A stretch of 64,000 nt of DNA from Hyphomicrobiales bacterium (GCA_965224015.1 OZ245032.1:939201-1003200), one strand, 5' to 3'; positions 8,593 through 63,508 are shown, numbered from the stretch's first letter. Numbers and translations are program-made. Notes: generated from the sequence alone by a model not told the origin.

Positions 8593-8632
8593 GAGCGTAT
8601 CAGGTTTTAATAGAACCATTCTGACGGAGCGA
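8593..8632 (+). repeat. RepB short form (approx 40 bp)
   Basis: GAGCGTATCAGGTTTTAATAGAACCATTCTGACGGAGCGA. Preceded by a 10-bp inverted repeat, CTAAATGACT (8562-8571) / AGTCATTTAG (8584-8593). Confidence 0.8.
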
Positions 8633-8706
8633 TTTTGCGCCAATATGGGCCTTAAGTCTCGCAGGATATAGGGGGGCTATTTGCAAGAGGCTTAAGGTCC
8701 ATATGA

Positions 8707-8938
8707 GATCAGCATGGCGTTAGCTTTACCCATTTTGCCAGGGGCAAAGCTAACGCCATAAAGCTGATCGCCCTCTAAATCTATAGCAAAAGCGTCCCTT
8801 CGGGTTTCCGTTTGGCGCAACGCCCACGCCCAAGCCGCTCTCGAGAGATGGATAAACATCGCTCTTCGATCGCCTTGAGCTTGGGAATCGCCTCGCCAAT
8901 CGAGAAACAGAATTGATTCTATTAAAACCTGACACGCT
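8707..8938 (-). repeat. RepB full-length copy (hairpin module + core + left end)
   Basis: The plus strand shows GATCAGCATGGCGTTAGCTTT...AAAGCTAACGCCATAAAGCTGATC (long hairpin), then CTCTAAATCTATAGCAAAAGCG...CCTGACACGCTC. Over 90% alike by eye to 15674-15906 and 12449-12607. Confidence 0.9.
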
Positions 8939-8971
8939 CTAGCTATATGCTTTTATTATCGCTCGGCTTTT

Positions 8972-8999
8972 CGCCTGAAAATGAAATCATTTTCAGGCG
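8972..8999. repeat. Perfect 13-bp inverted repeat (hairpin)
   Basis: CGCCTGAAAATGA-AA-TCATTTTCAGGCG. No adjacent U-tract on either strand, so not called a terminator. Confidence 0.7.
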
Positions 9000-9020
9000 G
9001 CCTGGCTATAGGATCGGCCA

Positions 9021-10547
9021 ATGCAATCCTCAGACATTGCCGCAGGCACCCCCGGCCAAAATACACAGGGCGTATCGTCTTCGCGCCATCAGAAATTTCT
9101 TAAAGGCCCGATCATGATGCATGTCATCATCATGACCCTGTCGGGCGCCATGGGCCTTGTCGCTATCTTTTTCGTCGATCTCATTAACCTCATGTACATC
9201 CAGTGGTTGGGGGACGAGAAAAAAACAGCGGCAGTTGGATTTGCTTCGACCGTTCTATTCTTTTCCGTATCCTTTGGGGTGGGCGTTATGATCGCCGCCA
9301 CGGCCCTCGTCTCAAGGACAATCGGCGCCGGAAAACTGGAGCGCGCACGCGAATTGGCCAGCGCCAGTATGATCGTGATGGCGGTGTCGACATTGTGCTT
9401 GAGCATTGTGCTTTATATTTTTGCCTCACCGCTTCTGTTCTGGTTAGGGGCCCGCGATGAAACTCTCGTCTTCGCTACGCGGTATCTGCGCTTTGTGCTG
9501 ACGATGACCGTCCCGTTGTGTTTAGGGATCGGCCTGAGTGGAATTTTACGTGCTGTGGGAGACGCCAAGCGGTCCATGTTTGTGACCCTTTCCGGTGCTG
9601 TCGTGACATTTGTACTGGACCCGTTGTTCATTTTGGTTTTGCGGCTTGAACTCGACGGCGCCGCCTTTGTTGCCTGCCTTTCACGTCTTGTCATTCTTTT
9701 TGTAGGCATACACGGCGTTTGGCGGATTCACAAGATGTTGGCTGTCCCAAGACTGCGTCGTCTTCCCGGCGATGTCGTTGAGGTGATCCATATAGCCTTT
9801 CCCGCCGTTTTGACCAATATCGCGACCCCCGTGGCGGTGTTTATTCTGCAACACTACATGGCCGCCTATGGTGACAGCGCCATAGCCGGCTTTGCCGTCG
9901 TTGATCGTATAGTTCCGGTGGCTCTTGGAATGCTATTTGCCCTGTCGGCGTCGGTGTCGCCAATTATCGGGCAGAATTTTGGCGCGGGAGATTTTGTCCG
10001 GGTCAACCGAACGATGGGCGATGCGGCCCTCTTCACGGTCCTCTACGTGCTAACCATATGGGCTGCGTTGTTCGCCAGCCGTGAGATCATTGTCAGTGTT
10101 TTTGCTCTTGAGGGACTAGCGGCGGAACTGGTGCGGCTTTTTTGTACCTGGATGGTTCCCGGTTTTGGCTTTTTGGGGTTTTTGTTTATCGGAAATTCCG
10201 CGTTTAATACCCTGGGATATCCCCTGTTTTCGACGGCGATTAACTGGGCCCGGGCCTTGATCGGAGTGTGGCCACTCATTCTGATCGGCGGCTATTTTTA
10301 TGGCCCCCAGGGCCTGATGATGGGTTTTGCCAGCGCTAGTGTCGTCTTCGGCGGTGTCAGCCTGGCCCTTGGTTTTCACGTGATCGGGGCGCTGGCGGGT
10401 CAGCGCCAAGGTGAAAGGCGGCGAGGCTACGGCACCATTCTCATCACCCCTGGCGCGGCCAAAACCTTGACAAAAACTGAGAACCAGGTGGTGGATCCCA
10501 CCTACTCACTCCCCTTGTCGAGCCTGAGCGCCACAAAACGGTGCTGA
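9021..10547 (+). CDS. MATE-family efflux transporter
   Basis: 508 aa, about 12 predicted TM helices with a two-fold internal MatE-like organisation. The 3' end overlaps the convergent htrA by 46 bp. Confidence 0.8.
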   Translation: MQSSDIAAGTPGQNTQGVSSSRHQKFLKGPIMMHVIIMTLSGAMGLVAIFFVDLINLMYIQWLGDEKKTAAVGFASTVLFFSVSFGVGVMIAATALVSRTIGAGKLERARELASASMIVMAVSTLCLSIVLYIFASPLLFWLGARDETLVFATRYLRFVLTMTVPLCLGIGLSGILRAVGDAKRSMFVTLSGAVVTFVLDPLFILVLRLELDGAAFVACLSRLVILFVGIHGVWRIHKMLAVPRLRRLPGDVVEVIHIAFPAVLTNIATPVAVFILQHYMAAYGDSAIAGFAVVDRIVPVALGMLFALSASVSPIIGQNFGAGDFVRVNRTMGDAALFTVLYVLTIWAALFASREIIVSVFALEGLAAELVRLFCTWMVPGFGFLGFLFIGNSAFNTLGYPLFSTAINWARALIGVWPLILIGGYFYGPQGLMMGFASASVVFGGVSLALGFHVIGALAGQRQGERRRGYGTILITPGAAKTLTKTENQVVDPTYSLPLSSLSATKRC

Positions 10548-12085
10548 CCATCGGCACTGCTAACCAGAACCAGTGCCGTGCGCCGCTGCTTGCTGCGCAA
10601 ATCCTTGATCCGCTCGGCCAGATCTTGGGGCGTTTCGATTGTGTTCTGCATCACTTCGACGATCACATCACCAGGCTTGAGCCCCTTGTCCTGGGCATCC
10701 GTGCCTGGCGTCACGGCGCTCACCACAACCCCCCTGATCGCCTCCTCAATCGCATACCGTTTACGCAGGTCAGCAGACAGGGGGCTGACCGTCAGGCCCA
10801 GGACCGTAACAGCAGGATGGTCCTGATTGTTGTCGCCGGAACTCGGATCTTGTGGCACAGGCGCATCCTGCGCATCCTGCGCGTCCTGCGCGTCCTGCGC
10901 ATCCCGCCTCTCCTGCCCCTCCTGCCCCTCCTGCCCCTCCTCCTCAAGGCGTCCCAGGGTCACGGAAATTGTGCGCTTTTTGCCATCGCGCAACACCTCG
11001 ACAGCGACAACCTTGCCCACCGGCGTCAGCGCGACAATGCGCGGCAGCTCGCGCATTTTCTCGATCGATTTTCCATCAAAACTAAGTACCACATCGCCGG
11101 GCTCAAGACCGGATGCGGCCGCGGGGCCGCCCGCCTCCACGTCAGCAATAAGAACGCCGCGTGGGCGCTCAAGACCCAGACTTTCAGCGATATTGCCGGA
11201 GATTTCCTGAATATGAACCCCGAGCCAGCCGCGTCGGGTTTCACCAAATGTTTTAAGCTGCTCAATGACCGGAACCGCGAGAGATGTGGGAATGGCAAAG
11301 CCAAGGCCAATGGAGACCCCGGTTGGAGAAATGATTGCGGTATTGATGCCAACGACTTCTCCGTTCATATTAAACAAAGGACCACCGGAGTTTCCTCGAT
11401 TGATGGCAGCGTCGGTTTGGATGAAATTGTCGTAGGAGCCGACGCGAATATCACGCCCGCGTGCCGAGACAACGCCAACGGTGACAGAGCCCCCAAGAGC
11501 AAATGGATTGCCGATTGCAATCACCCAGTCACCGACCCGGATCGCCTCCGAGTCGCCAAAACGCGCCGGCACCAGCGGCTTGTCCGGTTTAACCTGAAGA
11601 ACCGCAAGGTCGGTTTTTTTGTCGCGACCCAGGATTTCCGCATCCAGTCGCGTTCCATCATTGAGAACAACGGTAATTTCGTCCGCCTCGGCGATGACAT
11701 GACTGTTGGTGACCACAATGCCGCCTGCATCAATGATAAAACCCGAGCCAAGCGCGCTCGCCTGCCCCAGAGGGCCATCACTGTCAGGGGATTGTTTATT
11801 GAAAAAATCGTCAAAAAAATCCTTGAACGGAGACCCGTCCGGCGCCTGTGGGATCGGCAGTCCCCGTCGCCCCTTAAGCTTCTGGCTGGTGGATATGTTC
11901 ACCACCGAGGCTTGTAGATCTTCAACAAGGTCGGCAACGGATTGGGGCCCACGGGCGTTCGCCGAAGGCGGCATTATTGCGAAAACGAGGCCCAACACCA
12001 GTGCAACAAAAAAACCTCTGAACATGATCACTGCCTGTGGCTTGCCTAAATTTAAATAGTGAAAGGTCTTCATATCCTTTCCCAT
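10502..12085 (-). CDS. htrA: Do-family periplasmic serine endopeptidase (DegP/HtrA) with two PDZ domains
   Basis: GNSGGPLFN active-site motif, trypsin-like core and two PDZ regions. The signal-peptide-like MFRGFFVALVLGLVFAI suggests an alternative start at 12025. Confidence 0.93.
   Translation of the reverse strand: MGKDMKTFHYLNLGKPQAVIMFRGFFVALVLGLVFAIMPPSANARGPQSVADLVEDLQASVVNISTSQKLKGRRGLPIPQAPDGSPFKDFFDDFFNKQSPDSDGPLGQASALGSGFIIDAGGIVVTNSHVIAEADEITVVLNDGTRLDAEILGRDKKTDLAVLQVKPDKPLVPARFGDSEAIRVGDWVIAIGNPFALGGSVTVGVVSARGRDIRVGSYDNFIQTDAAINRGNSGGPLFNMNGEVVGINTAIISPTGVSIGLGFAIPTSLAVPVIEQLKTFGETRRGWLGVHIQEISGNIAESLGLERPRGVLIADVEAGGPAAASGLEPGDVVLSFDGKSIEKMRELPRIVALTPVGKVVAVEVLRDGKKRTISVTLGRLEEEGQEGQEGQERRDAQDAQDAQDAQDAPVPQDPSSGDNNQDHPAVTVLGLTVSPLSADLRKRYAIEEAIRGVVVSAVTPGTDAQDKGLKPGDVIVEVMQNTIETPQDLAERIKDLRSKQRRTALVLVSSADGQHRFVALRLDKGSE
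10861..10941. repeat. Two abutting in-frame 9-bp tandem arrays inside htrA (5 + 4 units)
   Basis: GCGCATCCT-type unit x5, then GCCCCTCCT-type unit x4. On the coding strand these encode EEGQEGQEGQERRDAQDAQDAQDAQDA between the PDZ domains. Confidence 0.9.
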
Positions 12086-12162
12086 TGCCTTCGCCTCGAT
12101 ATAACTTGCATTATGACTTGGGCGTCTCCCATACCTGCAGGAATTTCAACCCACGCGATCTT

Positions 12163-12189
12163 TCTATCCTGTCTATCCTGTCTATCCTG
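12163..12189. repeat. Tandem repeat, 9-bp unit x3
   Basis: TCTATCCTG x3, between the DUF2065 gene and htrA. Confidence 0.9.
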
Positions 12190-12225
12190 TCACTACCGCA
12201 GAGGCGGCAATATCGCGATCCCCGT

Positions 12226-12411
12226 TCATCTGGTGAACAACCACACGACAAGCAGGCCGACAACAACTGCACAGGATCCTACGTTGCGTAATGCACTGTC
12301 CGGAAGCTCAAGAGTTCGGCGAAGAAGCACTTTCATTTGCGCGGGGAAAAGCGCATAAACCGCACCTTCCACCAAAAGAAGCAGTCCAACCGCCAACGCC
12401 AACTCATTCAT
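12226..12411 (-). CDS. DUF2065-family small membrane protein
   Basis: 61 aa with two TM helices, MNELALAVGLLLLVEGAVYALFP. Occupies the conserved position downstream of hflC. Confidence 0.75.
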   Translation of the reverse strand: MNELALAVGLLLLVEGAVYALFPAQMKVLLRRTLELPDSALRNVGSCAVVVGLLVVWLFTR

Positions 12412-12448
12412 CTCATCATCTTGTTCCTGTGCTCTCAGATAGCCGCTA

Positions 12449-12607
12449 GAGTGTGTCAGGTTTTAATAGAACCCATTCTGTTTCTCGATTGGCGAGGCGA
12501 TACCCAAGTTCAAGGCGATCGAAGAGCGATGTTTATCCATCTCTCAAGAGCGCCTTGGGCGTGGGCGTTGCGCCAATCGGAAACCCGAAGGGGCGCTTTT
12601 GCTATAG
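12449..12607 (+). repeat. RepB copy lacking the long-hairpin module
   Basis: GAGTGTGTCAGGTTTTAATAGAACCCATTCTGTTTCTCGATTGGCGAGGCGA...GGGGCGCTTTTGCTATAG. Confidence 0.9.
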
Positions 12608-12626
12608 CCGCAATCAGAACACACTA

Positions 12627-13526
12627 TTAAGGGTTGGGAGCGGATAACTCCCGGCCGTTGGGATCACGAAAATACCGAAAGAAGTCAGAGTTCGGAGACA
12701 GAACCATGGTTGTGCCACTGTCCTCAAGGGCCTGGGCATAGGCGATCATGGAGCGATAAAAGGCAAAAAACTCCGGATCGCGCTGGAATGCCTCGGCAAA
12801 AATGCGGTTGCGTTCGCCCTCACCCTGGCCGCGTAGAATTTCCGCTTCGCGTTGCGCCTCCGCCTCCAGTTCCACAACTTCCCTGTCGGTTGCTGCGGTG
12901 ATGCGTTTGGCTGCCTCCTTACCGCGGGCGCGAATGACTTCGGCCTCGGCCAGGCGCTCGGCACTCATGCGATCGTAGGTCTGCTGGGAAACCTCCTTGG
13001 TCAAATCTGTGCGGCGGATACGCACATCAATGATGTTTAACCCGAGGGATTCAGCTTCGGCACGAATTTGATCGCGCACTTCGCGCATCATTTCCGTGCG
13101 TTCTTCAGAAAGCGCGGCCTTAAAACTGCGCAAGCCGTAGACCCGACGCAAAGCCGAGTCGAACCGGGTTCGCAAACGTTGCTCGGCCGACAGAACACTC
13201 GCAGAGACCGCCTCACGAAACCGGCGCGGGCTGTTAATGCGATAAGTCAGGAATGCATCAACCTCATAGAACTTGCCGCCCGACACCTGAACGCGCATAT
13301 CATCAAGATCAAAGCGCATAAGGCGGTCTTCAATAATTTGAACGGTGTCAACAATATCCGTCGGAATTTTAAAGTAAATACCCGGGTCCTCAATAACCCG
13401 CCGGATCTCGCCAAAACGAAGGACCAGAGCCTGCTGACGTTCGGTCACAATGAACAGGGATGAGTAGACCACATAGGCTGCAGCCAATAGGGCTGCAAGA
13501 CCAAAAAACGATGTAAACCGGTTCAT
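12627..13526 (-). CDS. hflC: Protease modulator HflC
   Basis: 299 aa SPFH/band-7 protein with an N-terminal TM. A 4-nt overlap with hflK suggests coupling. Confidence 0.93.
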   Translation of the reverse strand: MNRFTSFFGLAALLAAAYVVYSSLFIVTERQQALVLRFGEIRRVIEDPGIYFKIPTDIVDTVQIIEDRLMRFDLDDMRVQVSGGKFYEVDAFLTYRINSPRRFREAVSASVLSAEQRLRTRFDSALRRVYGLRSFKAALSEERTEMMREVRDQIRAEAESLGLNIIDVRIRRTDLTKEVSQQTYDRMSAERLAEAEVIRARGKEAAKRITAATDREVVELEAEAQREAEILRGQGEGERNRIFAEAFQRDPEFFAFYRSMIAYAQALEDSGTTMVLSPNSDFFRYFRDPNGRELSAPNP

Positions 13527-14617
13527 TGGTTTCCTCCCACACGATTTTTATTCAACTCCGGCAATGGCAAATAGGGAACGACACCAGAGCCGCCCTGTCC
13601 GCCCTCAAGGATGACCTTGTCGGACGACTTCAGCACCCTCTCCAAGGTCTCGTAGAAAAGGCGCTGACGGGTTACTTCAGGGGCCTTGGCATACTCTTCA
13701 TGGACGGAAATAAACCGTTGCGCCTCACCCTCGGCCTCCTGCACAACACGGGCCTTGTAGCCGGCCGCCTTTTCACGAATCTCAGCCGCTTTGCCCCGTG
13801 CCACGCCAAGTTTTTCAGCGCGATAACGGTTGGCTTCTTCCTTCAGGCGTACTTCATCCTGCTCCGCGCGCTGGACTTCGTCGAAAGCATCCGCCACCTC
13901 AGGAGGCGGTGCAGAATCCTCTATATTGAGCGCCGTGATGGCCACGCCTGTTCCATGGGCGTTCAGGATTTGCTGAGCAATATCACGGACTTCTCGGGCA
14001 ATATTGTCGCGCTCATCGCGATAAATATCACCGGCGGGTCGGCGGCTAACGACCTCGCGCATCGCACTTTCGGCAACCTGACGAACCAACCCTTGCGGGT
14101 CGCGTACATTAAAAAGATAGTCCTTAGGTCTATCGATGCGCCACTGCACAGTAAATGTAACGTCCACGATATTCTGATCACCAGAAAGCATCAGGCCGGA
14201 TTCAGAGGTTCCGCCACCCCCTTTTCGTGGTCCAATATTGATCTGATTCTCGATAATTTTAACGACCTCAAGGCGTTCCATGGGCCAAAACATAAAGTGC
14301 AGCCCTGGTTGCGAAAGCTCCTCCTTGGGTTGACCAAAACGAAGCTCAACCCCAAGTTCTTCCGCCTCTATCGTATAGAACGAATTGTAAAGAAATAAGG
14401 CTACCAAACCCAACAACACCAAAAGAAAGGTAAAATTGGGAGAGCCTCCACCTTTCGGCAGAACGTTCTTCAGTTTGTCCTGGCTGCTGCGGAACAAATC
14501 ATCAAGACCGGGCTGCTCGCGCCCACGTCCGGGGCCTGAGCCCGAGCCGGGCCCGGACGGCCCTCCGCCCCACGGTCCGCCGCTGCCACCATTACCGGAA
14601 TTATCACTCCAGGGCAT
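13523..14617 (-). CDS. hflK: Protease modulator HflK
   Basis: 364 aa with a Gly-rich N-terminus (GNGGSGGPWGGGPSGPGSG), a TM segment and an SPFH domain. Confidence 0.93.
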   Translation of the reverse strand: MPWSDNSGNGGSGGPWGGGPSGPGSGSGPGRGREQPGLDDLFRSSQDKLKNVLPKGGGSPNFTFLLVLLGLVALFLYNSFYTIEAEELGVELRFGQPKEELSQPGLHFMFWPMERLEVVKIIENQINIGPRKGGGGTSESGLMLSGDQNIVDVTFTVQWRIDRPKDYLFNVRDPQGLVRQVAESAMREVVSRRPAGDIYRDERDNIAREVRDIAQQILNAHGTGVAITALNIEDSAPPPEVADAFDEVQRAEQDEVRLKEEANRYRAEKLGVARGKAAEIREKAAGYKARVVQEAEGEAQRFISVHEEYAKAPEVTRQRLFYETLERVLKSSDKVILEGGQGGSGVVPYLPLPELNKNRVGGNQ

Positions 14618-14730
14618 CTGCTCTCCTTAAGTCCTCTGACATTCCTGTCAACAATTCTCAAGCCACTGACGGCGCAACAACGAGACTATCATAACATGAA
14701 TCCTCGTCGCTGAATTGACGCGCACAACCG

Positions 14731-14761
14731 TCGATACCATCGATACCATCGATACCATCGA
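14731..14761. repeat. Tandem repeat, 9-bp unit x3.4
   Basis: TCGATACCA x3, then TCGA. Confidence 0.9.
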
Positions 14762-14820
14762 GCCAGTAGCCGCACCCATCCTGTACAATCAACCCTATCC
14801 CTTTGCACAATCACTTGGCA

Positions 14821-14858
14821 TTATTCGTGGCACACACCTTTATTCGTGGCACACACCT
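14821..14858. repeat. Tandem repeat, 19-bp unit x2
   Basis: TTATTCGTGGCACACACCT x2, perfect. Confidence 0.9.
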
Positions 14859-14967
14859 TTTGTGCCCATGCTGGTCCCTTGTAGACGATAACCTTACTTA
14901 CCACCCTTGGTACCTTACAATTGTGTACTGCATGTTAAGACCTGCCGCCTGATGTCTCCAGAACAGC

Positions 14968-15096
14968 GGGAAACGTCTATTTGTGGCCTGCCCGATCCGC
15001 CTCCCCTTGCCCCATCACCCCTAAGGCACCATTTTACCCGCGGCCCAAGCCGGGGGTGCGGGCAGGGTGAGGCCGGTCAATAGAGTTGCCCAGCTC
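14968..15096 (+). repeat. RepC copy (long form)
   Basis: Starts GGGAAACGTCTATTTGTGGCCTGCCC and ends GGTGAGGCCGGTCAATAGAGTTGCCCAGCTC. Confidence 0.7.
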
Positions 15097-15342
15097 GATG
15101 TTCCTATACGCATGCTGCCATAGTGCCAATCCCGTATTCATATCCCTTACTCAATGCCATATCCCCGTCGTACCGACATCCAAGGGGTGCGCTGTTAAGG
15201 GTTTAAGTACACGACTTAAGATATAGGCAAGCAAACACCGCATTGCAACGCCTGGCGAGACCGAAACCAGGGCCAATGCCGCGAGGAGAGCGCGTTGCTG
15301 CTGCGAGAGTAATTTCAACGTGGAAGCTTTTGCCATAAAATG

Positions 15343-15444
15343 ATACCAGCGGTATGGGATTTATAGACACGCCGGCTGGGGTGGGGCCTTGATAACACAC
15401 CGGATTGACGCTAATCCATAAGCCCTTGTCAAGGCCTTTGGTAT
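15343..15444 (+). repeat. RepA copy (divergent subfamily)
   Basis: ATACCAGCGGTATGGGATTTATAGACACGCCGGCTGGGGTGGGGCCTTGATAACA...GTCAAGGCCTTTGGTAT. Confidence 0.85.
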
Positions 15445-15476
15445 GAGAGGTACTTAACATCATCCCCCGTGCAGAG

Positions 15477-15674
15477 GTGATCGGATTGAATGTTTTGATT
15501 GTTCTTGTTCCTGCCGCACTGGCACTGGGTGCGCTGGGCTTGCTGGCATTTTTATGGTCTGAGCGTCATGGTCAGTTTGATGATCTGGACGGCGCGGCGT
15601 GGCGCGTTCTTGATGATGACGAACATCCGAGCGACGGTAGAGACGGTAGAGACGTGGATAGGGATGAAAGCTAG
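15477..15674 (+). CDS. ccoS: cbb3-type cytochrome oxidase maturation protein CcoS/FixS
   Basis: 65 aa, LIVLVPAALALGALGLLAFLWSERHGQFDDLDGAAWRVLDDDE matches the CcoS signature (single TM + GQ(F/Y)DDLDG). A TTG at 15486 preceded by AGGTG is an alternative start. Confidence 0.85.
   Translation: MIGLNVLIVLVPAALALGALGLLAFLWSERHGQFDDLDGAAWRVLDDDEHPSDGRDGRDVDRDES
15633..15654. repeat. In-frame 9-bp tandem repeat x2.4 in the ccoS tail
   Basis: GACGGTAGA GACGGTAGA GACG encodes DGRDGRD. Confidence 0.8.
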
Positions 15675-15906
15675 ATCAGCTTGGCGTTAGTTGTACCCAT
15701 TTTGCTATGGGGACACCTAAACGTATAAGGCTGAGCGCCCTCTAAATCTATAGCAAAAGCGCCCCTTCGGGTTTGCGATTGGCGCAACGCCCACGCCCAA
15801 GCCGCTTTTGAGAGATGGACAAGCATCGCTCTTCGATCGCCTTGAACTTGGGGATCGCCTCGCCAATCGAGACACAGAATGGATTCTATTAAAACCTGAC
15901 ACGCTC
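15674..15906 (-). repeat. RepB full-length copy
   Basis: GATCAGCTTGGCGTTAGTTGTACCC...GGGGACACCTAAACGTATAAGGCTGAGC, then CTCTAAATCTATAGCAAAAGCG...CCTGACACGCTC. It begins at the last base of the ccoS stop codon. Confidence 0.9.
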
Positions 15907-16029
15907 TCTAATGCGTCGAGATTGACAAGCCCCTCCAAGCAGGTTACAGCAATGCACAAATTTGCACAAGATGTGACGTGGTGGCCGGCAAGAGAGCCAT
16001 AGGATCGCCAAGCGTCCTTGCAATAGATG

Positions 16030-16116
16030 GCCCAGGTGGCGAAATTGGTAGACGCGCTAGCTTCAGGTGCTAGTGGCCGTATGGTCGTGGAAGTTCGAGT
16101 CTTCTCCTGGGCACCA
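16030..16116 (+). tRNA. tRNA-Leu (anticodon CAG)
   Basis: GCCCAGGTGGCGAAATTGGTAGACGC...: 7-bp acceptor stem GCCCAGG/CCTGGGC, anticodon arm CTAGC-TTCAGGT-GCTAG, long variable arm, TPsiC GTTCGAGTC, encoded CCA. Confidence 0.93.
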
Positions 16117-16148
16117 TAATTTGAAAAACGCAATAAAGCCAAAAAGTT

Positions 16149-16189
16149 ATATCAGCGATATGGGATTTTTGTACACGCTGACTTGTGGG
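16149..16189 (+). repeat. RepA 5'-half fragment (degenerate)
   Basis: ATATCAGCGATATGGGATTTTTGTACACGCTGACTTGTGGG, compare the 15343 copy. Confidence 0.6.
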
Positions 16190-16382
16190 CGTCTCTATTT
16201 GCGACCTGGCCAGCCCTCCCTCGTCCCAACTACCCATAAAACAGTACCCTATGGAGTCCCTCGTTATCCCATTTCGGCCTCGTGAAGCCATTCATCTGAT
16301 AATTGCTTGTCTCCGGCGCCGTTGCATGAAAAGGAACCGATAAAACATGATAAAAAGGTCCTTATCCAGAACACCGGTTAGG

Positions 16383-16907
16383 CTATAAACTGCGCGCTGG
16401 GCCCGCAGGCGCCCTGACATAGGTCGTGCGTGTGCAATCGATCGGGGGTCCGGGGACCCTTTCGCTTTCCATCACCCGCCACACCTCAAAGTCGATCACA
16501 GGAAACATGACATCCCCCCGCACTTTCTTATGTACGTGGGTGATGTAGAGGCGATCTGCACTGGCAAAGGTCTGGGCGTAGACCTCCCCTCCCCCGATGA
16601 TCATCATTTCCTTCGCTCCGCTTTCGCGCGCCAGGCGATCTGCAAGCCTCAGAGCCTCAGGAACGCTGCTTACAACCAAAACCCCATCAATGGTCAGGCC
16701 CTGACGGCGGGAAATGACAATATTAGGGCGCCTGTCAAGAGGCTTGCCCACACTCTCATATTGCTTTCGCCCCATGATGATTGGCTTACCCAGGGTCATG
16801 GCGCGAAAGTACTTCATGTCCGACGAAATGTGCCAGGGCATTCCCCCATCGACGCCGATGACGCCGTTGTCGCTGACGGCGGCAATAAGGGCAACCGGTG
16901 TTTTCAT
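16383..16907 (-). CDS. folA: Dihydrofolate reductase
   Basis: 174 aa, IAAVSDNGVIGVDGGMPWHISSDMKYFRAMTLGKPIIMGRKQYES...GGGEVY. Confidence 0.93.
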   Translation of the reverse strand: MKTPVALIAAVSDNGVIGVDGGMPWHISSDMKYFRAMTLGKPIIMGRKQYESVGKPLDRRPNIVISRRQGLTIDGVLVVSSVPEALRLADRLARESGAKEMMIIGGGEVYAQTFASADRLYITHVHKKVRGDVMFPVIDFEVWRVMESERVPGPPIDCTRTTYVRAPAGPARSL

Positions 16908-19060: not shown

Positions 19061-19872
19061 CCGCCCTGTGCCTTCCTGATTGTCGCTTTATCCTCGACGT
19101 CCCGTTTTGCGTTTGCGCCCGTGCCAATTCCCGGGCCGTCGGTCATGCCCGCAAGCACTTCGGCAATGTGGCGTACCTCAATAAGGCGCTCCTCTCGCGC
19201 CAGCTTTCCCGCCATGTTGAGAAGACAACCGAGATCGCCGGCCACCAGCGCATCGGCCTTTGTCTCGGCAATGGAGGCGGTTTTCTCGCTGACAATGGCG
19301 TTGGAAATGTCAGGATATTTGGTACAGAACGTGCCGCCGAACCCGCAACACACTTGCGCATTACGCATTTCACGCAAAGTCAGGCCCTCGACTTTACTGA
19401 GAAGGGCGCGAGGCTGGTCGCGAATACCCAGTTCACGCAGCCCCGCGCAAGAGTCGTGATAGGTCACCGTTTTGGCAAACCGGGTCGCAAAGCGATCAAC
19501 CCCGGCAACATCTGTCAGAAAGCGTGTCAGTTCGTAAGCCCGATCGGAAAATGCCGCCGCGCTCGCAGCCCACTCAGGGTCGTCACGCAACAGATCGGGT
19601 ATGTGAATTTTCAGCATCGCCGCACACGAGCCGGATGGTGCCACCACATAGTCAACATCGGCAAAAGCCTTGACGACCTGACGCGCAAGAGCGATCGCGG
19701 TCTTGCGGTCGCCCGAATTATACGCCGGTTGGCCGCAGCAGGTCTGCGCGCGTGGAACCACGACCTTAAAGCCCGCGTCTTCAATCAACTTCACGCTCGC
19801 CCAACCCACACGGGGGCGAAACAGGTCAACGAGGCACGTGACAAACAGGCCCACAACGGGTTTTGTACTCAT
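19057..19872 (-). CDS. lutA: Lactate utilisation protein A (CCG-domain Fe-S oxidoreductase)
   Basis: Two CCG motifs (QTCCGQPAYNSGD, QVCCGFGGTF). Start set at MSTKPVVGLFVTC because the 14 upstream codons (MTLSHESLLRTLGI) are RepA sequence. Confidence 0.88.
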   Translation of the reverse strand: MSTKPVVGLFVTCLVDLFRPRVGWASVKLIEDAGFKVVVPRAQTCCGQPAYNSGDRKTAIALARQVVKAFADVDYVVAPSGSCAAMLKIHIPDLLRDDPEWAASAAAFSDRAYELTRFLTDVAGVDRFATRFAKTVTYHDSCAGLRELGIRDQPRALLSKVEGLTLREMRNAQVCCGFGGTFCTKYPDISNAIVSEKTASIAETKADALVAGDLGCLLNMAGKLAREERLIEVRHIAEVLAGMTDGPGIGTGANAKRDVEDKATIRKAQGG

Positions 19873-19873
19873 T

Positions 19874-19976
19874 ATACCAAGGGTCCTTAACAATGACTCA
19901 TGGCTTAGCGTCAAAGAGGTATGTTATCAAGGCAGTACACCAGTCGGCGTGTACATAAAGCCAATACCGCTGGTAT
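19874..19976 (-). repeat. RepA copy (reverse orientation)
   Basis: ATACCAAGGGTCCTTAACAATGACTCATGGCTTAGCGTCAAAG...AAGCCAATACCGCTGGTAT. Its 3' end lies 2 bp from the lutA ATG. Confidence 0.9.
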
Positions 19977-20065
19977 TATTCGTCAGGTTCCCGCACGCGA
20001 TTGCTATCGCCCGCCCTGTGCAAGGGCGCTCCCCACATCCTGCAAATACCTGCCCGCGCAAACCG

Positions 20066-20488: not shown

Positions 20489-20591
20489 ATACCAGCGGTA
20501 TTGGCTTTATAGACACGCTGACTGGTGTACTGCCTTGATAACACACCTCTTTGATGCTAATCCATGAGTCATTGTTAAAGACCCTTGGTAT
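20489..20591 (+). repeat. RepA copy
   Basis: ATACCAGCGGTATTGGCTTTATAGACACGCTGACTGG...TTGTTAAAGACCCTTGGTAT. Confidence 0.9.
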
Positions 20592-20652
20592 TATATCGAA
20601 CGTTGGTGCTACGGCAACGGTTTTCATGCCGGGCCAATGTTTCTTGTCACCT

Positions 20653-23748: not shown

Positions 23749-23765
23749 TATGTCCTCCCCGTCTA

Positions 23766-23901
23766 GATCAGCTTGGCGTTAGTTGCCCCCATTTGCTATG
23801 GGGACAACTAAACGCATAAAGCTGATCGCCCTCTAAATCTATAGCAAAATGCAAAAACAATGCGGGAGCCCCATGATTCCAACTAGGCGCATTTTGCTAT
23901 A
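23766..23901 (-). repeat. RepB variant (long-hairpin module + second hairpin module)
   Basis: GATCAGCTTGGCGTTAGTTGCCCCC...GGGGACAACTAAACGCATAAAGCTGATC, then TATAGCAAAATGC-N37-GCATTTTGCTATA (13-bp perfect arms). Confidence 0.85.
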
Positions 23902-24229
23902 ATGGTCTCGACGTAGTTTAGACCCTTGCCGCGCCCATTACGAAAATGAATATAACCAATGCGATCCTGTCCGGCAGATTCCCGTCCGCCCAGACCATGG
24001 CCATTTGTTGGCAGATGATCTTGAAAAAGATGTGACCTAAGCCGGATATTCACTTATCGGGCGGCTGCGCGGGCTCGCGGACCTGCGCGGCGTCATGCAC
24101 GGCATGGACGTGGCGAGGCGATACCATGCCTGACCTGTTCCACCTTGGCGACACCCCACACCAACAAAACGCACGGACATGATCTTGCCAGTGGGAGTGA
24201 TCGCGGTGGCGGACGTGGTGTTTGCCTGA

Positions 24230-26066: not shown

Positions 26067-26169
26067 ATACCAGCGGTATTGGCTTTATAGACACGCCGAC
26101 TGGTGTACTGCCTTGATAACATAACTCTTTGACGCTAAGCCATGAGTCATTGTTAAAGACCCTTGGTAT
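26067..26169 (+). repeat. RepA copy
   Basis: ATACCAGCGGTATTGGCTTTATAGACACGCCGACTGG...TTGTTAAAGACCCTTGGTAT. It ends 15 nt before the regulator start codon. Confidence 0.9.
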
Positions 26170-26184
26170 GAAAACTGTGCAAAT

Positions 26185-29212: not shown

Positions 29213-29252
29213 GAGCGTGTCAGGTCTTAATAGAACCATTCTGACGGAGCGA
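29213..29252 (+). repeat. RepB short form
   Basis: GAGCGTGTCAGGTCTTAATAGAACCATTCTGACGGAGCGA. Confidence 0.85.
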
Positions 29253-29260
29253 ATGACAAA

Positions 29261-29689
29261 ATGGATATCAAACCCCTCACCGACACGTTTGCTGTCAGCG
29301 GCCAAATCACGGCCGCGGATCTCGGCGAGATTGCCCGAGCAGGATACAAGAGTATAGTCTGCAATCGCCCCGACAACGAGGTCCCCGGCCAGCCGACCTA
29401 TGATCAGATCGCACACACGGCTGCAACCATGGGACTGGTTTGTGCCCATGTTCCGTCCATTTCGGGGGCTATGACCACTGAGGATGCCGACGCCATGGGC
29501 GAGGCTCTGGATACACTGCCTGCCCCTATTTTGGCCTATTGTCGCACCGGGACCCGCAGCACGACCCTGTGGGCTCTTGCAGTTGCGGATGAACACCCCA
29601 TCGAAGACATCTTGCAGCGCGCATCAGTTGCAGGCTATGATCTCTCCCTGGTATCAAACATCCTACACCAACGTGCAAAGCGTCTCTGA
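29261..29689 (+). CDS. TIGR01244/DUF442-family sulfurtransferase-like protein
   Basis: 142 aa, FAVSGQITAADLGEIARAGYKSIVCNRPDNE...ILAYCRTGTRS (Cys-X5-R phosphatase-like loop). Confidence 0.8.
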   Translation: MDIKPLTDTFAVSGQITAADLGEIARAGYKSIVCNRPDNEVPGQPTYDQIAHTAATMGLVCAHVPSISGAMTTEDADAMGEALDTLPAPILAYCRTGTRSTTLWALAVADEHPIEDILQRASVAGYDLSLVSNILHQRAKRL

Positions 29690-38794: not shown

Positions 38795-38895
38795 TACCAG
38801 CGATATGGGCTTTATGGACACGCCGGCTGGTGTACGGCTTTGATAACACAACGCTTTGACGCTAAGGTATGAGTCCTTGGCAAGGGCCCTTGGTA
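38794..38895 (+). repeat. RepA copy (divergent subfamily), first of a head-to-tail pair
   Basis: ATACCAGCGATATGGGCTTTATGGACACGCCGGCTGGTGTACGGCTTTGATAACA...GGCAAGGGCCCTTGGTA. It starts at the last base of the pyrC' stop codon. Confidence 0.88.
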
Positions 38896-38997
38896 ATACC
38901 AGCGGTATGGGCTTTATGGACACGTCGGCTGGTGTACGGCTTTGATAACACAACGCTTTGGCGCTAAGTCATGAGTCATTGGCAAGGGCCCTCGGTA
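38896..38997 (+). repeat. RepA copy (divergent subfamily), second of the pair
   Basis: ATACCAGCGGTATGGGCTTTATGGACACGTCGGCTGG...GGCAAGGGCCCTCGGTA. Confidence 0.88.
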
Positions 38998-39003
38998 CAA
39001 GCG

Positions 39004-39098
39004 AAACGCATAAAGCTGATCGCCCTCTAAATCTATAGCAAAATGCAAGAAGAATACGCAAAAGCCCCATGATTCCCATGAAACGCATTTTGCTATAG
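39004..39098 (-). repeat. RepB variant (right arm of the long hairpin + second hairpin module)
   Basis: AAACGCATAAAGCTGATCGCCCTCTAAAT, then CTATAGCAAAATGC-N38-GCATTTTGCTATAG (14-bp perfect arms). Confidence 0.85.
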
Positions 39099-39315
39099 CG
39101 AAAACAAAGCGCTGCACCTTCTTGAGCTTTGCTTTCTCATTGTTTCAAATGAGGAAAAGTAAATGGAGCGGAGCGGAGCGAAGCACCTTTCTTCACGATC
39201 AACAAATTCGTCTTGCGGCGCGCACAAGGCGCTTCGCCAGAGCGCACGGGCGAACCGCGGCGCGTTTGGCTCCCGGCGCAGATTAAAACCGTCGTTTTAT
39301 CAGCACGATACACAA

Positions 39316-39349
39316 GTCAGCGTATACAAAACACCAATACTGCTGGTAT
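39316..39349 (-). repeat. RepA 5'-end fragment (reverse)
   Basis: GTCAGCGTATACAAAACACCAATACTGCTGGTAT, compare CAGTCGGCGTGTATATAAAGCCAATACCGCTGGTAT. Confidence 0.6.
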
Positions 39350-39548
39350 AACCTCAATAGGTTGTACTTAAAAACCCGTCGGGGGTACAGATGAATGGCC
39401 CGAACTGGCCTTCCTGGCGGCAGGGCCGCAAGACATGACACGCTTCAGGAACAAGCTGCTGAAAGATCACAGCTGGGGGATACCTGGAAGCCATGAGTTT
39501 TTCAGATCGGCCGGCTCGCCAAGGAACATCGGCCAGGGGATGCGCTGA

Positions 39549-46232: not shown

Positions 46233-46252
46233 AAGCAAGACTCGCCGCAAGA

Positions 46253-46312
46253 CCGGTATAACCTGTATAACCTGTATAACCTGTATAACCTGTATAATCT
46301 GTATAATCTGTT
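46253..46312. repeat. Tandem repeat, 9-bp unit x6.5, in the murJ / NadR-like divergent gap
   Basis: CCGGTATAA, CCTGTATAA x4, TCTGTATAA, TCTGTT. Confidence 0.92.
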
Positions 46313-46403
46313 CATGGGACTACGGAGCCGACCTGTGCTTTTGCTGAATTTGATGGCACTCAAGGTTGGTATACCACGGATTGGAAAGATCGGGAGGTGT
46401 GAT

Positions 46404-49570: not shown

Positions 49571-49643
49571 GTCTGTAATAGAGCGTATCATGTCTTAATA
49601 GAGCGTATCATGTCTTAATAGAACCATTCTGACGGGCACGCTC
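49571..49643 (+). repeat. RepB short form with internal 20-bp duplication
   Basis: GTCTGTAATAGAGCGTATCAT / GTCTTAATAGAGCGTATCAT / GTCTTAATAGAACCATTCTGACGGGCACGCTC. Confidence 0.8.
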
Positions 49644-49690
49644 TGGAAATTTGAGATCAGAAGCAGGAAACCTGAAACGCGCTCGCTTAA

Positions 49691-56826: not shown

Positions 56827-56929
56827 ATACCAGCGGTATTGGCTTTATAGACACGCCGACTGGTGTACGGCTTTGATAACATGCCTCTTTGACGCTAAGC
56901 CATGAGTCATTGTTAAGGACCCTTGGTAT
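56827..56929 (+). repeat. RepA copy
   Basis: ATACCAGCGGTATTGGCTTTATAGACACGCCGACTGG...TTGTTAAGGACCCTTGGTAT. Confidence 0.9.
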
Positions 56930-56993
56930 AAATACCGGCCCCCTGTTGCAAGCACGGCCTCACTTATCGACCAAAGCGCATCCCGTCACATTT

Positions 56994-57087: not shown

Positions 57088-57109
57088 TGAGGCGCGTGGC
57101 GCAAGAGGG

Positions 57110-57382: not shown

Positions 57383-57656
57383 AACGGCTTCCTTTCGTTG
57401 TTCCAATCAGCAAACCGGCGTAAGCAGATCATTGAGCCAACGGGGCTCGCAAAACTGCGACGCGTCAAAAACGTCGATCGAATCAAATTGTCGACCTGCG
57501 TACAGTTTAGTCAAACAGCACAGAAAGCAAGCTGCAAATTGTTCAAAATCCCATAAAAGCGACGATTTTTGACCCATCCACAGAAATTTCCCAACACGTA
57601 TGGCCGATCCGCCGGATATTGTGGGCCCGCCCGGACTTGTGGCCGGGTTCATGCGA

Positions 57657-57701
57657 ATCAAGACACATTCTATCAAGACACGTTCTATCAAGACACGTTC
57701 T
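57657..57701. repeat. Tandem repeat, 15-bp unit x3, abutting the lon stop codon
   Basis: ATCAAGACACATTCT / ATCAAGACACGTTCT / ATCAAGACACGTTCT. Confidence 0.9.
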
Positions 57702-60138: not shown

Positions 60139-60371
60139 TTACCCTGTCAAATAGAGCCAGACTCAAAGGCTGGCTGGTGATCGTCCCCGCGGTACACCCC
60201 GCAGATATTAAACCACAGTGATCGTAACCATAGTCAAAACGCCGACCCGCATACCAGTCACAATCGTGTATTGTCCCCAGGAACGCGAGGCCTTACGGCA
60301 CATGATACTTGCGTCTTCCCGTTTGCTATTATCGGCTCGGCAGAACGCTTTACGGATTGATAAAATCGCTT

Positions 60372-60387
60372 ATACCAGCGGTATTGG
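60372..60387 (+). repeat. RepA 5'-terminal fragment
   Basis: ATACCAGCGGTATTGG only. Confidence 0.5.
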
Positions 60388-60427
60388 TCGCGCGGGAAAC
60401 ATGATCAAAGCGCGCCAAAAGCAAAAG

Positions 60428-60465
60428 CGCTCCGTCAGAATGGTTCCATAAAACATGACACGTTC
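60428..60465 (-). repeat. RepB short form (reverse)
   Basis: The reverse complement is GAACGTGTCATGTTTTATGGAACCATTCTGACGGAGCG. Confidence 0.75.
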
Positions 60466-60561
60466 TAAATAGGAGCGCAGGTGTGGCGTTTCAAGCGCTT
60501 GCAAAATGCGCCGCCCGGACAGCAGGGGCACCCCGACCCAATATCGAAACCTGAATTCCTG

Positions 60562-61827: not shown

Positions 61828-61944
61828 GACTCTCGTTCTCCGCTTTAAATTATTGTCCCAAAAACACCCACATCAGTTGTGGTTAGTTTTACGTACAACG
61901 AACATCCTGGATCATCGTCACAACTGACACCAAACGTCCATAAT

Positions 61945-61978
61945 GTTTCCCACTTTCCTGCGTTTCCCACTTTCCTGC
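61945..61978. repeat. Tandem repeat, 17-bp unit x2
   Basis: GTTTCCCACTTTCCTGC x2, in the clpP-clpX spacer. Confidence 0.9.
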
Positions 61979-62295
61979 CTCTGACTGGTTCTCACGCCGC
62001 TTCTCCAAACCGCCCGGTCCGATCGTATTCCACCATGAAACACCGACAACGAAATACAGAACACACAATATGGTATCAGCTTAGTCAATGTCGTCCATAG
62101 CGCAAGGACTGATAGGTAATCGGACCCGATAACCTGAAAGTATAATTACCAAAAGCGGTAAACATTATATACCGGAAGTCCTTGCCGTATTTTGCCATAT
62201 TCAAACACCAGCATTGTCTTCAAACATGCACGAAACATACCGCAACGCATCGGTTGCTTTCGGATGTAAGCCCAAAGACGCCATATTATGCCCAT

Positions 62296-62940
62296 TTAAG
62301 CCGCTTCATCATCATCTTCAGGCGCGCGTTTGTCGACAACATTGTCGATCAGGCCAAAGTCCTTGGCCGCATCCGCGGTCATGAAGTTGTCGCGCTCCAG
62401 CGCCTGCAAAACATCATCATAAGCCTGTCCGGTGTGACGAACGTAAATTTCATTGAGACGTTTTTTAACGTTGGAAATCTCTTTGGCGTGAATTTCAATA
62501 TCCGTGGCCTGCCCCTGAAAGCCCGCTGAGGGCTGATGCACCATGATGCGTGCATTGGGTAGTGCTGAGCGCATGCCCTTTTCCCCACCCGCCAACAGGA
62601 GCGAACCCATGGATGCCGCTTGCCCCACACAAAGGGTCGCAATGGCCGGGCGCACAAACTGCATCGTGTCATAAACCGACAACCCTGACGTTACAACGCC
62701 ACCTGGGGAGTTAATGTACATGAAGATCTCTTTTTTGGGATTTTCCGATTCCAGATACAGCAATTGCGCCACGACAAGTGAGGCCATAGCATCTTCCACA
62801 GGGCCGGTGATAAATATGATACGTTCCTTAAGAAGGCGGGAATAGATATCAAAAGCCCGCTCGCCCCGATTGGTTTGCTCAACAACCATCGGGACCAGGG
62901 TGTTCATGTATATCTCTTGGGTCCGTGCGGAATCAGGCAT
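62296..62940 (-). CDS. clpP: ATP-dependent Clp protease proteolytic subunit
   Basis: [29 protein letters not shown] and [11 protein letters not shown] (catalytic Ser). The first Met at 62940 follows TGAGGAT. Met12 (62907) is an alternative. Confidence 0.96.
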
Positions 62941-63458
62941 GGATATATCCTCAATTGGAAAAAATAATAAGCGCCGGGGTTCCCATACGCGCCCGGCACA
63001 AGGTGTGCATCTCCATTAACCGGCATCACAGGCGACTTTAGCAGAAATGCGGCGTCATCTTCCGGCAAGCCGCCCTATCGAAAAAAGCCGATCTCTCATC
63101 ATCAAATGGTGCCAAATCCGAAGTGAACGGCTCCAACTGCTACCATTGGCGTGTGAATGGTTAATGATCTGTTGATTTGTGCGTCCAAGTGGGGACAAAT
63201 GTCGCCGATTGCAACAATTGAACCCGATTTATTTGTGCCGCTTGTCCGTACCATGTCGCCGATTATACGCCGGCATTTACTCAAGTTTTAGCACACAGGT
63301 TTGTTATTTGTTACACCCTGCGCTGTATCGTCACCGCTACGCCAGGGCAAATGTGTCAGATTTTTCAAGGCCCTGAACCGACAAGTTAAGCATGCGGTTG
63401 CTCGCATACTGTTTTTCGCATGCGCGCAAGGTAATTTATCACCCAGGCCACCACCCTT

Positions 63459-63508
63459 GAGCGTGCCATGTCTGAATAGAAGACCCCATTCTGTTTCTCG
63501 TTTGGCGC
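63459..63508 (+). repeat. RepB 5' fragment (degenerate)
   Basis: GAGCGTGCCATGTCTGAATAGAAGACCCCATTCTGTTTCTCGTTTGGCG, compare GAGTGTGTCAGGTTTTAATAGAACCCATTCTGTTTCTCGATTGGCG. Confidence 0.6.

Follow-up and report, generated by a model that had tools for sequence, protein, structure and literature searches.

The question raised by a 64,000-nt stretch of DNA from a Hyphomicrobiales bacterium (GCA_965224015.1 OZ245032.1:939201-1003200; this whole stretch is referred to below as the window) concerns the nature of a hairpin-rich repeat, RepB, which recurs at several places within it and keeps an open frame of 55-60 codons. The first-pass annotation of this sequence favoured a structured RNA or DNA element and not a peptide. 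The absence of a peptide gene, the strong structure and the compensatory changes are all confirmed here, but the RNA half of that proposal obtains no specific support, and what was missed is that RepB is mobile DNA, viz. a miniature inverted-repeat transposable element (MITE) that is bounded by terminal inverted repeats (TIRs) and duplicates a TA at its target site. RepB is a known kind of bacterial repeat, representing a family with an unusually conserved hairpin core, and it is very likely a non-autonomous DNA transposon of the IS630/Tc1-mariner type.

Termini, target sites and a candidate mobiliser

The 23-nt left end of the repeat (GAGCGTGTCAGGTTTTAATAGAA) was searched for in the whole window, allowing up to 3 mismatches and with shuffled sequences as control, and it was found six times, where the shuffles give an expectation of zero. 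An nhmmer profile built from diverse members of the RepB family matched exactly seven loci in the window (8593-8939, 12449-12602, 15753-15906, 29213-29254, 49601-49653, 60421-60462, and 63459-63507). Only the first of these, 347 bp in length and spanning profile positions 1-270 (E=8.5e-53), is complete among the window copies, with TIRs and a TA on both sides; its tips read GAGCGTATCAGG... (B end) and ...CCTGACACGCTC (A end). The three long copies that had earlier been described as full (8707-8938, 12449-12607, and 15674-15906) are all real, with pairwise identities of 89-94%, but only one of them is part of a complete element and the other two are one-ended and truncated. The copy at 12449-12607 has a TA on its outer side (12447-12448) and matches profile positions 116-269 (E=5e-36), and that at 15674-15906 matches positions 116-270 (E=8e-33). 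The sequence at 8593, which had been listed as a separate short form, is actually the second TIR of the 8707-8938 copy, so that one element extends over 8593-8939. The other 40-bp short forms exist as end fragments at 29213, 49581/49601, and 60421-60468 (reverse strand); they are solo ends.

A genome scan with one genome per species gave at least 79 loci, and all of the matches listed were in the metagenome-assembled genome (MAG) OZ244974.1, a 3.39-Mb Hyphomicrobiales chromosome of which 632 kb around the 79 loci were analysed (loci are designated below by L numbers). The complete window element could be aligned end to end with the 347-351-bp copies of this MAG at 86-91% identity. The two sequences come from different genomes, whose shared genes are ~70% identical in DNA and whose MatE proteins are 63% identical, and the RepB copies of the two are 85-91% identical; the high identity of the MITE copies in comparison with that of MatE suggests that the element has either been exchanged between the lineages or been held under constraint. 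Among 5.8 billion database proteins, the MAG copy was the only fairly close relative of the window MatE, the next matches being at most 50% identical, and the Hyphomicrobiales lineage of the window is poorly sampled.

Within the 632 kb of the MAG, 198 termini were found, giving 73 plus/minus pairs (so that the MAG has at least 73 complete copies) and 60 solo ends. The family ranges in size from 50 to 477 bp. Its base form, with a modal length of ~271 bp, is represented by 42 copies of 269-275 bp, and the other size classes consist of 10 copies of 50-56 bp that contain termini only, four of ~165 bp, nine of 347-351 bp (including the window copy) in which a 75-bp hairpin module is added to the base form, three of ~375 bp in which a repeat of a second family, RepA, is nested, and two of ~475 bp. 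The TIR has a core of 23 bp and pairing reaches ~31 bp; this helix (helix 1) is 99.3% paired in the 42 base-form copies.

The flanks of these copies point to TA as the target. A TA adjoins 59 of the 73 left ends, 57 of the 73 right ends and 43 of the 60 solo ends, compared with a frequency of 3% for this dinucleotide in the same DNA. The flanking context is mostly CTA-..-TAG (hyphens mark the element boundaries), and tandem RepB copies have one TA in common. Two nested insertions are informative in this regard. At L060 a 271-bp copy lies inside a 56-bp mini element (TCAGGTCT-TA-[copy]-TA-ATAGAAAC), and at L022 a 56-bp mini element lies inside another (..TTTTAT-TA-[mini]-TA-AGACCTGA); in both cases deletion of the insert together with one TA gives back the mini-element consensus. 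These insertions at known empty sites show that TA is duplicated exactly and is not part of the repeat. Further, the psd-matE spacer contains the complete RepB element in the window and no RepB in the orthologous spacer of the MAG, i.e., this copy is present in one genome and absent from the other. The mini elements of 50-56 bp, consisting of two termini and a 10-nt spacer and flanked by TA, were observed at L022 (6470-6580), L060 (584-915) and eight other loci. As one of them is inserted in another, the termini alone seem, from these junctions, to be sufficient for movement. Ends without a flanking TA almost always have TG (left) or CA (right) in its place; both represent one A-to-G change beside the terminal G (TAGAGC to TGGAGC), which recurs at ~30 ends and could reflect a mutational hotspot or imprecise repair.

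All 55 scorable MAG copies are intergenic, none being within a gene, and in ~12 cases the copy starts precisely at the TA of a neighbour's stop codon, where the first G of the element remakes TAG. Insertions of this kind are tolerated because the element starts with G, so that a TAA or TAG stop becomes TAG and the gene remains intact; they provide an example of near-neutral integration. Stop-codon insertions were seen at the MAG loci L015, L017, L026, L033, L055, L057, L063, L064, L073, L001, and L051, as well as at L086 (125-399) and L208 (602-875). Among the relatives described below, the copy in P. zundukense lies within a TAATG stop/start overlap with both the stop and the start preserved, and that in Rhizobium johnstonii 3841 abuts the stop of a LacI-family gene.

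Small size, TIRs, a target-site duplication seen at an empty site, the lack of coding capacity and the occurrence of many copies dispersed over unrelated sites and varying between genomes all place RepB among the MITEs. Repeats of the REP/BIME kind are palindromes of ~20-40 bp without TIRs or a target-site duplication and are associated with a Y1 transposase (RAYT); RepB has a unit of 270 bp, TIRs and a TA duplication (no search for RAYT was made).

A candidate for the enzyme that moves RepB was sought among the 79 MAG loci by screening open reading frames (ORFs) of 180 aa or more for those that had a second copy at 60% identity or more. The only multicopy transposase-like set in this screen belongs to a 1064-bp insertion sequence (IS), of which there are four full near-identical copies and a fifth partial one at the edge of a locus (L003 5757-6820, L071 2316-3379, L014 994-2052, L003 1-848, and L039 ~7750-8000). 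It contains orfA (130 aa) and orfB (228 aa; Pfam DDE_3, E=5e-29), which overlap at an A8 run, an arrangement that suggests programmed frameshifting. Its plasmid homologues, at 51-74% identity, are annotated as IS630 family transposase, and three relatives of this IS on Rhizobium and Microvirga plasmids end in TA-GAGC(A/G)TC. The ends of the MAG IS read tcTA-GAGCGTCAGGCGATTAATAGGAATC ... CGCCCGACGCTC-TAgc, or in summary form TA-GAGCGT..CAGG..TTAATAG, and its left end has GAGCGT, CAGG, and TTAATAG in common with the RepB terminus GAGCGTGTCAGGTCTTAATAGAA. When the 79 MAG loci and the window (~0.7 Mb, both strands) were searched with TA plus the RepB TIR, allowing 6 edits, this left end was essentially the sole non-RepB sequence to match; the remaining weak matches look like degenerate RepB-type ends. 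A layout of GAGC, 16 nt and a GANTC-like pentamer is common to the ends of RepB, of its relatives and of three Hyphomicrobiales IS630-family ISs. Additionally, a conserved internal segment of RepB, block B, resembles by eye the ribosome-binding region upstream of IS630 transposase starts (..GATTCnnTTCTGACCAGGAGG.. in a Microvirga IS), a likeness that would fit an origin of the element by internal deletion of an IS.

RepB is linked to IS630 because its ends are similar and its target is TA, which is the same kind of evidence, good but indirect, as that by which the RUP repeat of Streptococcus pneumoniae was assigned to IS630-Spn1, viz. TIR similarity and TA target (PMC2229807). From the similarity of the ends, we infer that the transposase of the 1064-bp IS, or a close relative of it, mobilises RepB, and the genome from which the window derives presumably has, or had, an IS630-family transposase of its own. 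Each end of the ~270-bp base unit consists of GAGC, a 16-nt segment and GAAnC, and the two ends enclose two long imperfect hairpins joined by conserved junction blocks, without a gene. In the mechanism envisaged, a DDE transposase of the IS630 family, supplied from another place in the genome, would recognise both TIRs, excise the element and paste it at a TA, preferably YTAR, which would become duplicated; insertion in the TA of a stop codon remakes TAG, and many copies lie exactly at gene ends. The window contains one intact copy, decayed one-ended copies and end fragments, and the modules that had been noticed appear to be other small TA-flanked palindromic repeats incorporated in RepB or adjoining it.

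The hairpin core and its conservation

When folded as RNA, the complete window element has a predicted energy of -157 kcal/mol (z=-10), and as DNA it has z=-12. The consensus fold of the 42 base-form copies comprises a terminal helix (columns 1-31/248-278) and two hairpins, hairpin 1 (33-137) and hairpin 2 (145-247), and 99.1% of the cells are paired in it, compared with 34-45% when the partners are slid. The observation that hairpin arms co-vary between copies stands, as illustrated by the module arms TTAGC/GCTAA vs TTCGC/GCGAA. Among the 42 MAG copies, 11 pairs show changes on both sides; these double changes stem from two to three block events, one defining a 17-copy subfamily (hairpin 1) and another a 12-copy subfamily (hairpin 2), and they represent few independent observations. 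In 12 diverse lineages, 48 of 85 predicted pairs have changed at both partners without loss of pairing; the small CCCTTCGGG stem, for example, is found in the pair variants CCT/AGG, TCC/GGA, and CCCCC/GGGGG.

These lineages represent a wider family. Full-length relatives were reached by way of weak plasmid matches in Aminobacter niigataensis and two Phyllobacterium species, and a metagenome scan with a 17-nt core motif added six more lineages, with ~8 of the 120 loci being real relatives and the rest mostly chance matches. A terminus search revealed a 269-bp relative in R. johnstonii 3841 pRL12, whose terminus type is matched in ~90 Rhizobium plasmids. All relatives have the form TA-GAGC...GCTC-TA and most of them are 266-275 bp long, but each has a 16-nt TIR segment of its own. 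The mean pairwise identity of nine non-redundant lineages is 0.97 for the GAGC ends, 0.38-0.41 for the 16-nt TIR segments, 0.77 for block B (GAAnCATTCTGACGGAGCGATTTTG), 0.78 for block C (..CCCGTCCCTTCGGGTTTCCGATTGGCGG), 0.83 for block A (CTCGCCAATCGAGAAACAGAATTG), and 0.45-0.56 for the hairpin tops. The two 16-nt segments of any one element agree with each other at 14-16 of 16 positions, except in L145 (7/16). This metagenome sequence (2679-2977) is a chimera with the left terminus GAGCACTTTTTATATACATTGAG and a right terminus of the RepB type (GAGCGCTTCAGGTCTTGATAGAA), which indicates that ends can be exchanged between lineages.

Variable termini that match each other within an element should be expected of a transposon that must match its transposase. 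The 16-nt segment may set which IS630 relative moves the element, with recombination in the conserved blocks swapping the ends, and the core would persist because it helps the element to spread or to be tolerated. A more far-reaching proposal is that of a Hyphomicrobiales-wide superfamily in which selection acts on the ~270-bp three-way-junction core, and in which both termini have repeatedly exchanged the 16-nt parts that are specific to a transposase; we put this forward tentatively, as an unlikely account. It would fit the identity of the junction blocks, the length of 266-275 bp kept in most lineages, the self-matching 16-nt segments and the chimera L145. If true, the core would travel as cargo on any IS630 relative resident in a genome and would have a function of its own, candidates being a bidirectional insulator of transcription or mRNA decay that renders insertions harmless, or, from the likeness of block B, a decoy or antisense of the IS630 transposase. 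A conserved core combined with hypervariable, self-matching termini is uncommon for MITEs, and it provides a handle on the switching of transposase partners and on selection for hairpins.

Positions 21-25 of the termini are often GAATC, GATTC or GAGTC, i.e., GANTC (L003, L084, L085, L080, L094, L163, and L145), and the left ends of three IS630-family ISs show the same. It is not universal, the MAG copies being split between GAATC and GAAGC/GAACC. GANTC is the CcrM methylation motif, and a link between transposition and replication-coupled methylation is possible.

The structure of the core also bears upon the possibility that the primary role of RepB is that of a non-coding, structured RNA or of a cis-regulatory RNA module (a terminator, a stabiliser or an RNase III target), with the three-way junction being selected and mobility serving as its means of spreading. 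The stability of the RNA fold is in keeping with this possibility, as is the covariation across the 12 lineages, which includes the internal hairpins and the small stem, and so is the higher identity of the junction blocks (77-83%) than of the helix tops (45-56%), together with a core that is apparently dispensable for transposition. For other MITEs, of the Correia and ERIC types, action at the level of mRNA has been reported (PMC2229807). Among the 42 copies of the MAG, G-U cells also exceed A-C cells on one strand (210 vs 58, in 15 vs 6 column pairs), the fold of that strand being 9 kcal/mol more stable. In the diverse alignment, however, the G-U excess falls on opposite strands for hairpin 1 and hairpin 2, so that the asymmetry is inconsistent, and the element folds equally well as DNA. 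Much of the covariation is located in the termini, as expected of a transposon, and the same pattern fits TIRs and DNA palindromes; the tracing of the MAG double changes to so few block events also argues against an RNA. Template switching in quasi-palindromes can yield block compensatory changes without selection.

Other RNA-directed analyses were negative. A search in Rfam, made as a check for an RNA family, gave no match to RepB: at gathering thresholds only two tRNAs were detected in the window, and for 8550-8990 only chance microRNA and small RNA (sRNA) matches appeared at E values of up to 10. Between co-directional genes, 12 copies have the same orientation as the genes and 13 the opposite one, showing no bias (20 further copies lie between convergent and 9 between divergent genes). 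Promoter- and terminator-like matches in 8000-16500 are no commoner than in shuffles, no element contains a terminator-like site, and the one promoter-like match that falls on a terminus of RepB (15910-15883) does not exceed expectation. Given these results, we consider a primary role as an RNA or regulatory module to be improbable. A hammerhead ribozyme was also considered as a candidate and rejected, as the sequence CTGACGG lacks A9 of the CUGANGA core (by eye) and no ribozyme family was matched. For the transposon itself, the hairpin core most likely helps persistence, e.g., by folding or by blocking read-through into neighbours, and is not an RNA gene.

Objections, other transposases and the open frame

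Several observations weigh against RepB being an IS630-type element moved by the IS identified here. Alignment of the MAG IS with the RepB TIR needs indels of 2 nt and 1 nt and gives a match at ~13 of the 16 variable bases, and this IS may not be the true mobiliser; by way of comparison, the two ends of the IS itself are only ~72% alike. An IS with the exact TIR of RepB (with its flank, TA-GAGCGTGTCAGGT(C/T)TTAATAGAA) was found neither in plasmids nor among the 79 loci of the MAG and the 120 from metagenomes, and no transposase gene is present within the 64-kb window. The core blocks are 77-83% conserved and the TIR segment only ~40%, though the 56-bp mini elements seem to be mobile without a core; because such coreless elements also insert, the needs of transposition alone fail to explain the conservation of the core. 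Further, the mobility of RepB is deduced from sequence comparison and not from directly watched transposition. Lastly, duplication of TA at YTAR is also known for some IS5-family elements such as IS711.

The last of these points, together with the indels that separate the resident IS630 ends from the RepB TIR, would be in accordance with RepB being a MITE that is moved by another transposase, e.g., an IS5-family enzyme of the IS427 group like that of IS711, since elements other than IS630 also prefer YTAR and duplicate TA. Against it stand the results of the transposase screen of the MAG loci, in which the IS630-family IS was the only multicopy transposase-like set, the end layout shared by RepB, its relatives and three IS630-family ISs, and, as a likeness judged by eye, that of block B to the ribosome-binding region before IS630 transposase genes, and we regard mobilisation by such an enzyme as very unlikely.

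The remaining question is whether the open frame of RepB codes for a protein. The earlier report that this frame is open in the three long window copies, with about 10 replacement and about 4 silent differences, was closely reproduced: there are 13 variable sites in the shared frame, distributed 2/7/4 over codon positions 1/2/3, and nine of the differences are replacement and four silent. In a survey of 62 MAG copies (65 with the three window copies), the frame was open in 41 of the 62. Within it, however, 25 of 42 aligned copies carry 1-nt indels and 36 of 42 carry 2-nt indels, and the shifted peptide reads, depending upon the subfamily, ..RRYPSSRRSKSD.., ..RRTTPKAIEERCLS.., or SNFRFSIGEAIPK... 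The open state of the frame is uninformative because four of the six frames are open for 50 codons or more in at least half of the copies, and it is an accident of G+C-rich sequence. The polymorphic sites of the MAG copies are divided 13/13/12 by phase. The check for coding across copies thus agrees with the earlier view that the frame is not coding, and a peptide gene was rejected on the basis of the frame-shifting indels, the lack of codon periodicity and the lack of an excess at third positions. That the conserved frame of 55-60 codons encodes a small protein is extremely improbable, for in spite of its being open in most copies, and of the many bacterial MITEs with open frames that can fuse to genes (PMC2229807), the indels alter the peptide completely between copies, position 2 and not position 3 varies most in the window, and no RepB copy lies inside a gene.

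Features of the window and comparison with known systems

The features of the window that are related to RepB are summarized in Table 1.

Table 1. RepB copies, their parts and other repeats in the 64,000-nt window (rc, reverse complement).
Feature	Position	Strand	Remarks
TA flank, left target-site duplication of the complete element	8591-8592		reads ..cattTA-GAGCGTATCAGG
Complete RepB element, 347 bp, B end first	8593-8939	+	~271-bp base form with nested 75-bp hairpin module
B-end TIR (GAGCGTATCAGGTTTTAATAGAA) and conserved block B (CCATTCTGACGGAGCGATTTTG)	8593-8637	+	short form of the first-pass annotation
Hairpin 2, arms CCAATATGGGCCTTAAGTCTC / GAGGCTTAAGGTCCATATGA	8638-8706	+	predicted helix; compensatory block changes in 12 of 42 MAG copies
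Nested 75-bp palindromic hairpin module (GATCAGC..GCTGATC)	8707-8781	+	missing in the 271-bp base form, present in the 350-bp class
Conserved block C with small CCCTTCGGG stem-loop, then hairpin 1 (8804-8908; GTTTCCGTTTGGCG...CGCCAATCGAGAAAC) ending in block A	8782-8908	+	
A-end TIR (..TTCTATTAAAACCTGACACGCTC)	8909-8939	+	inverted-repeat search
TA flank, right target-site duplication	8940-8941		reads CACGCTC-TAgct
One-ended copy: A-end TIR, hairpin 1, block C	12449-12607	+	halts at ..TTTTGCTATAG; without hairpin 2 and B end
One-ended copy: A-end TIR (15884-15906), hairpin 1, block C, hairpin module (15674-15747)	15674-15906	-	without hairpin 2 and B end
Solo B-end fragment (TIR and block B)	29213-29254	+	nhmmer positions 1-42, E=1.6e-7; 7 nt upstream of ATG at 29261
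Degenerate solo B-end fragment	49581-49653	+	20-bp tip duplicated in tandem (49581-49600, 49601-49620)
Degenerate solo B-end fragment	60421-60468	-	
Degenerate solo A-end fragment	63459-63507	+	21 bp upstream of a RepA copy; absent from the first-pass annotation
Separate element: hairpin module and CTATAGCAAAATGC..GCATTTTGCTATAG hairpin	23763-23903	+	no RepB termini or core; no match to RepB profile
Same separate element as at 23763-23903	39005-39098	+	module truncated by two tandem RepA copies
RepA copies	132-240, 5604-5712, 15343-15451, 19872-19985 (rc), 20489-20597, 26067-26175		
RepA copies	38794-38902, 38896-39004, 39294-39353 (partial, rc), 56827-56935, 63529-63648 (rc)		

Some solo B-end fragments are located directly before start codons, viz. 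29213-29263 in the window and, in the MAG, L008 ~3190-3256 (rc) and L010 6875-6925. In these fragments a GGAG of the element lies 7-11 nt ahead of the ATG, e.g., ..CTGACGGAGCGAATGACAAAATG at window 29261. They may represent exaptation of the block that resembles a ribosome-binding site, or deletions that end at gene starts.

The hairpin module at 8707-8781 is also found outside RepB, adjoining a CATAGCAAAATGC hairpin, in the MAG and at window positions 23763 and 39005. The hairpin-module variants that had been recorded at these two positions are thus present, but they are a separate element without the termini or core of RepB. The 75-bp module appears to derive from a separate small repeat family and to be now part of some RepB copies. 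Members of this family in the MAG, in which the module is followed by a CATAGCAAAATGC..GCATTTTGCTATAG hairpin, were seen at L006 (~6637-6700), L007 (7102-7190), L042 (7619-7690), and L055 (7895-7955). No clean TA-flanked nested insertion was found at the module junction in RepB (ATAT-TGGTG-CAAAAG vs ATAT-TAGATC..ATCTATAG-CAAAAG), and acquisition of the module by recombination with this family is possible.

RepA, the second repeat family (~109 bp), is at least as abundant in the window as RepB and is also common in the MAG. Its ends are inverted repeats of the ATACCAGCGG / CCAAGGGTAT type. In three MAG copies of RepB it is present inside hairpin 2, in the form CCT-TA-[RepA]-TA-AGTCTC, and RepA thus also appears to duplicate TA; it may be a repeat of the Bru-RS or CIR type. 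The window contains, in addition, tandem arrays at 46243-46314 (9-bp ACCTGTATA, seven units), 5514-5591 (13-bp ATGTCAGTGCAAA, five units, adjoining a RepA copy), 63683-63735 (9-bp CGTCATTGC, five units), and 49581-49620 (the 20-bp duplication of a RepB end). At L076 (4739-7093) of the MAG there are four tandem repeats of ~600 bp, each with an ORF of 184-187 aa; these are 96-99% identical to one another and have no Pfam match.

Many of the intergenic repeats of the window belong to RepB or to one of the two other TA-flanked families that adjoin it or lie inside it, and their recognition averts spurious calls of small ORFs and sRNAs. RepB itself would mark an IS630-driven mobile layer in a poorly known lineage of the Hyphomicrobiales.

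Of the known systems, IS630/Tc1-mariner ISs such as ISY100 have a TA target that is duplicated and TIRs bound by the N-terminal helix-turn-helix domains of the transposase, and they need no more than a single DDE transposase (PMC2170065). RepB differs from them in having no transposase and in being four times shorter, with only its ends and perhaps block B being similar. The RUP repeats resemble RepB in being small, non-coding and intergenic, and in their TIRs, insertion at TA, link to IS630 and insertion in other mobile elements (PMC2229807). However, RUP is 107 bp long with short TIRs and no conserved internal structure described, whereas the ~270 bp of RepB include two internal hairpins and the conserved junction blocks, and there is no sequence relationship between the two. 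The Correia elements (NEMIS) of Neisseria share with RepB TA termini with a target-site duplication, TIRs (of ~24 bp), size variants due to internal blocks and long stem-loop transcripts (PMC2229807), but they are 107-155 bp long and contain an IHF site. A role for them at the mRNA level involving RNase III has been proposed from experiments; the orientation of RepB relative to genes is random.

Dozens of intergenic repeats that are conserved and structured, but whose function is unknown, have been described in rhizobial genomes, including the RIMEs, Sm-repeats and AB/C palindromes (PMC2573895). Compared by description, these repeats and CIR/Bru-RS are like RepB in being intergenic, multicopy, from the same order, and conserved in both sequence and structure (PMC2573895, PMC2229807). 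By the same means CIR can be set apart from RepB, as it is ~110 bp long, is described without TIRs and has a conserved GANTC in its loop, whereas RepB has TIRs of 23-31 bp, and its GANTC-like pentamer (TIR positions 21-25) is confined to part of the copies and lineages. With RUP and Correia, RepB shares TA termini, TIRs, size variants, transcripts that would form hairpins and incidental open frames (PMC2229807).

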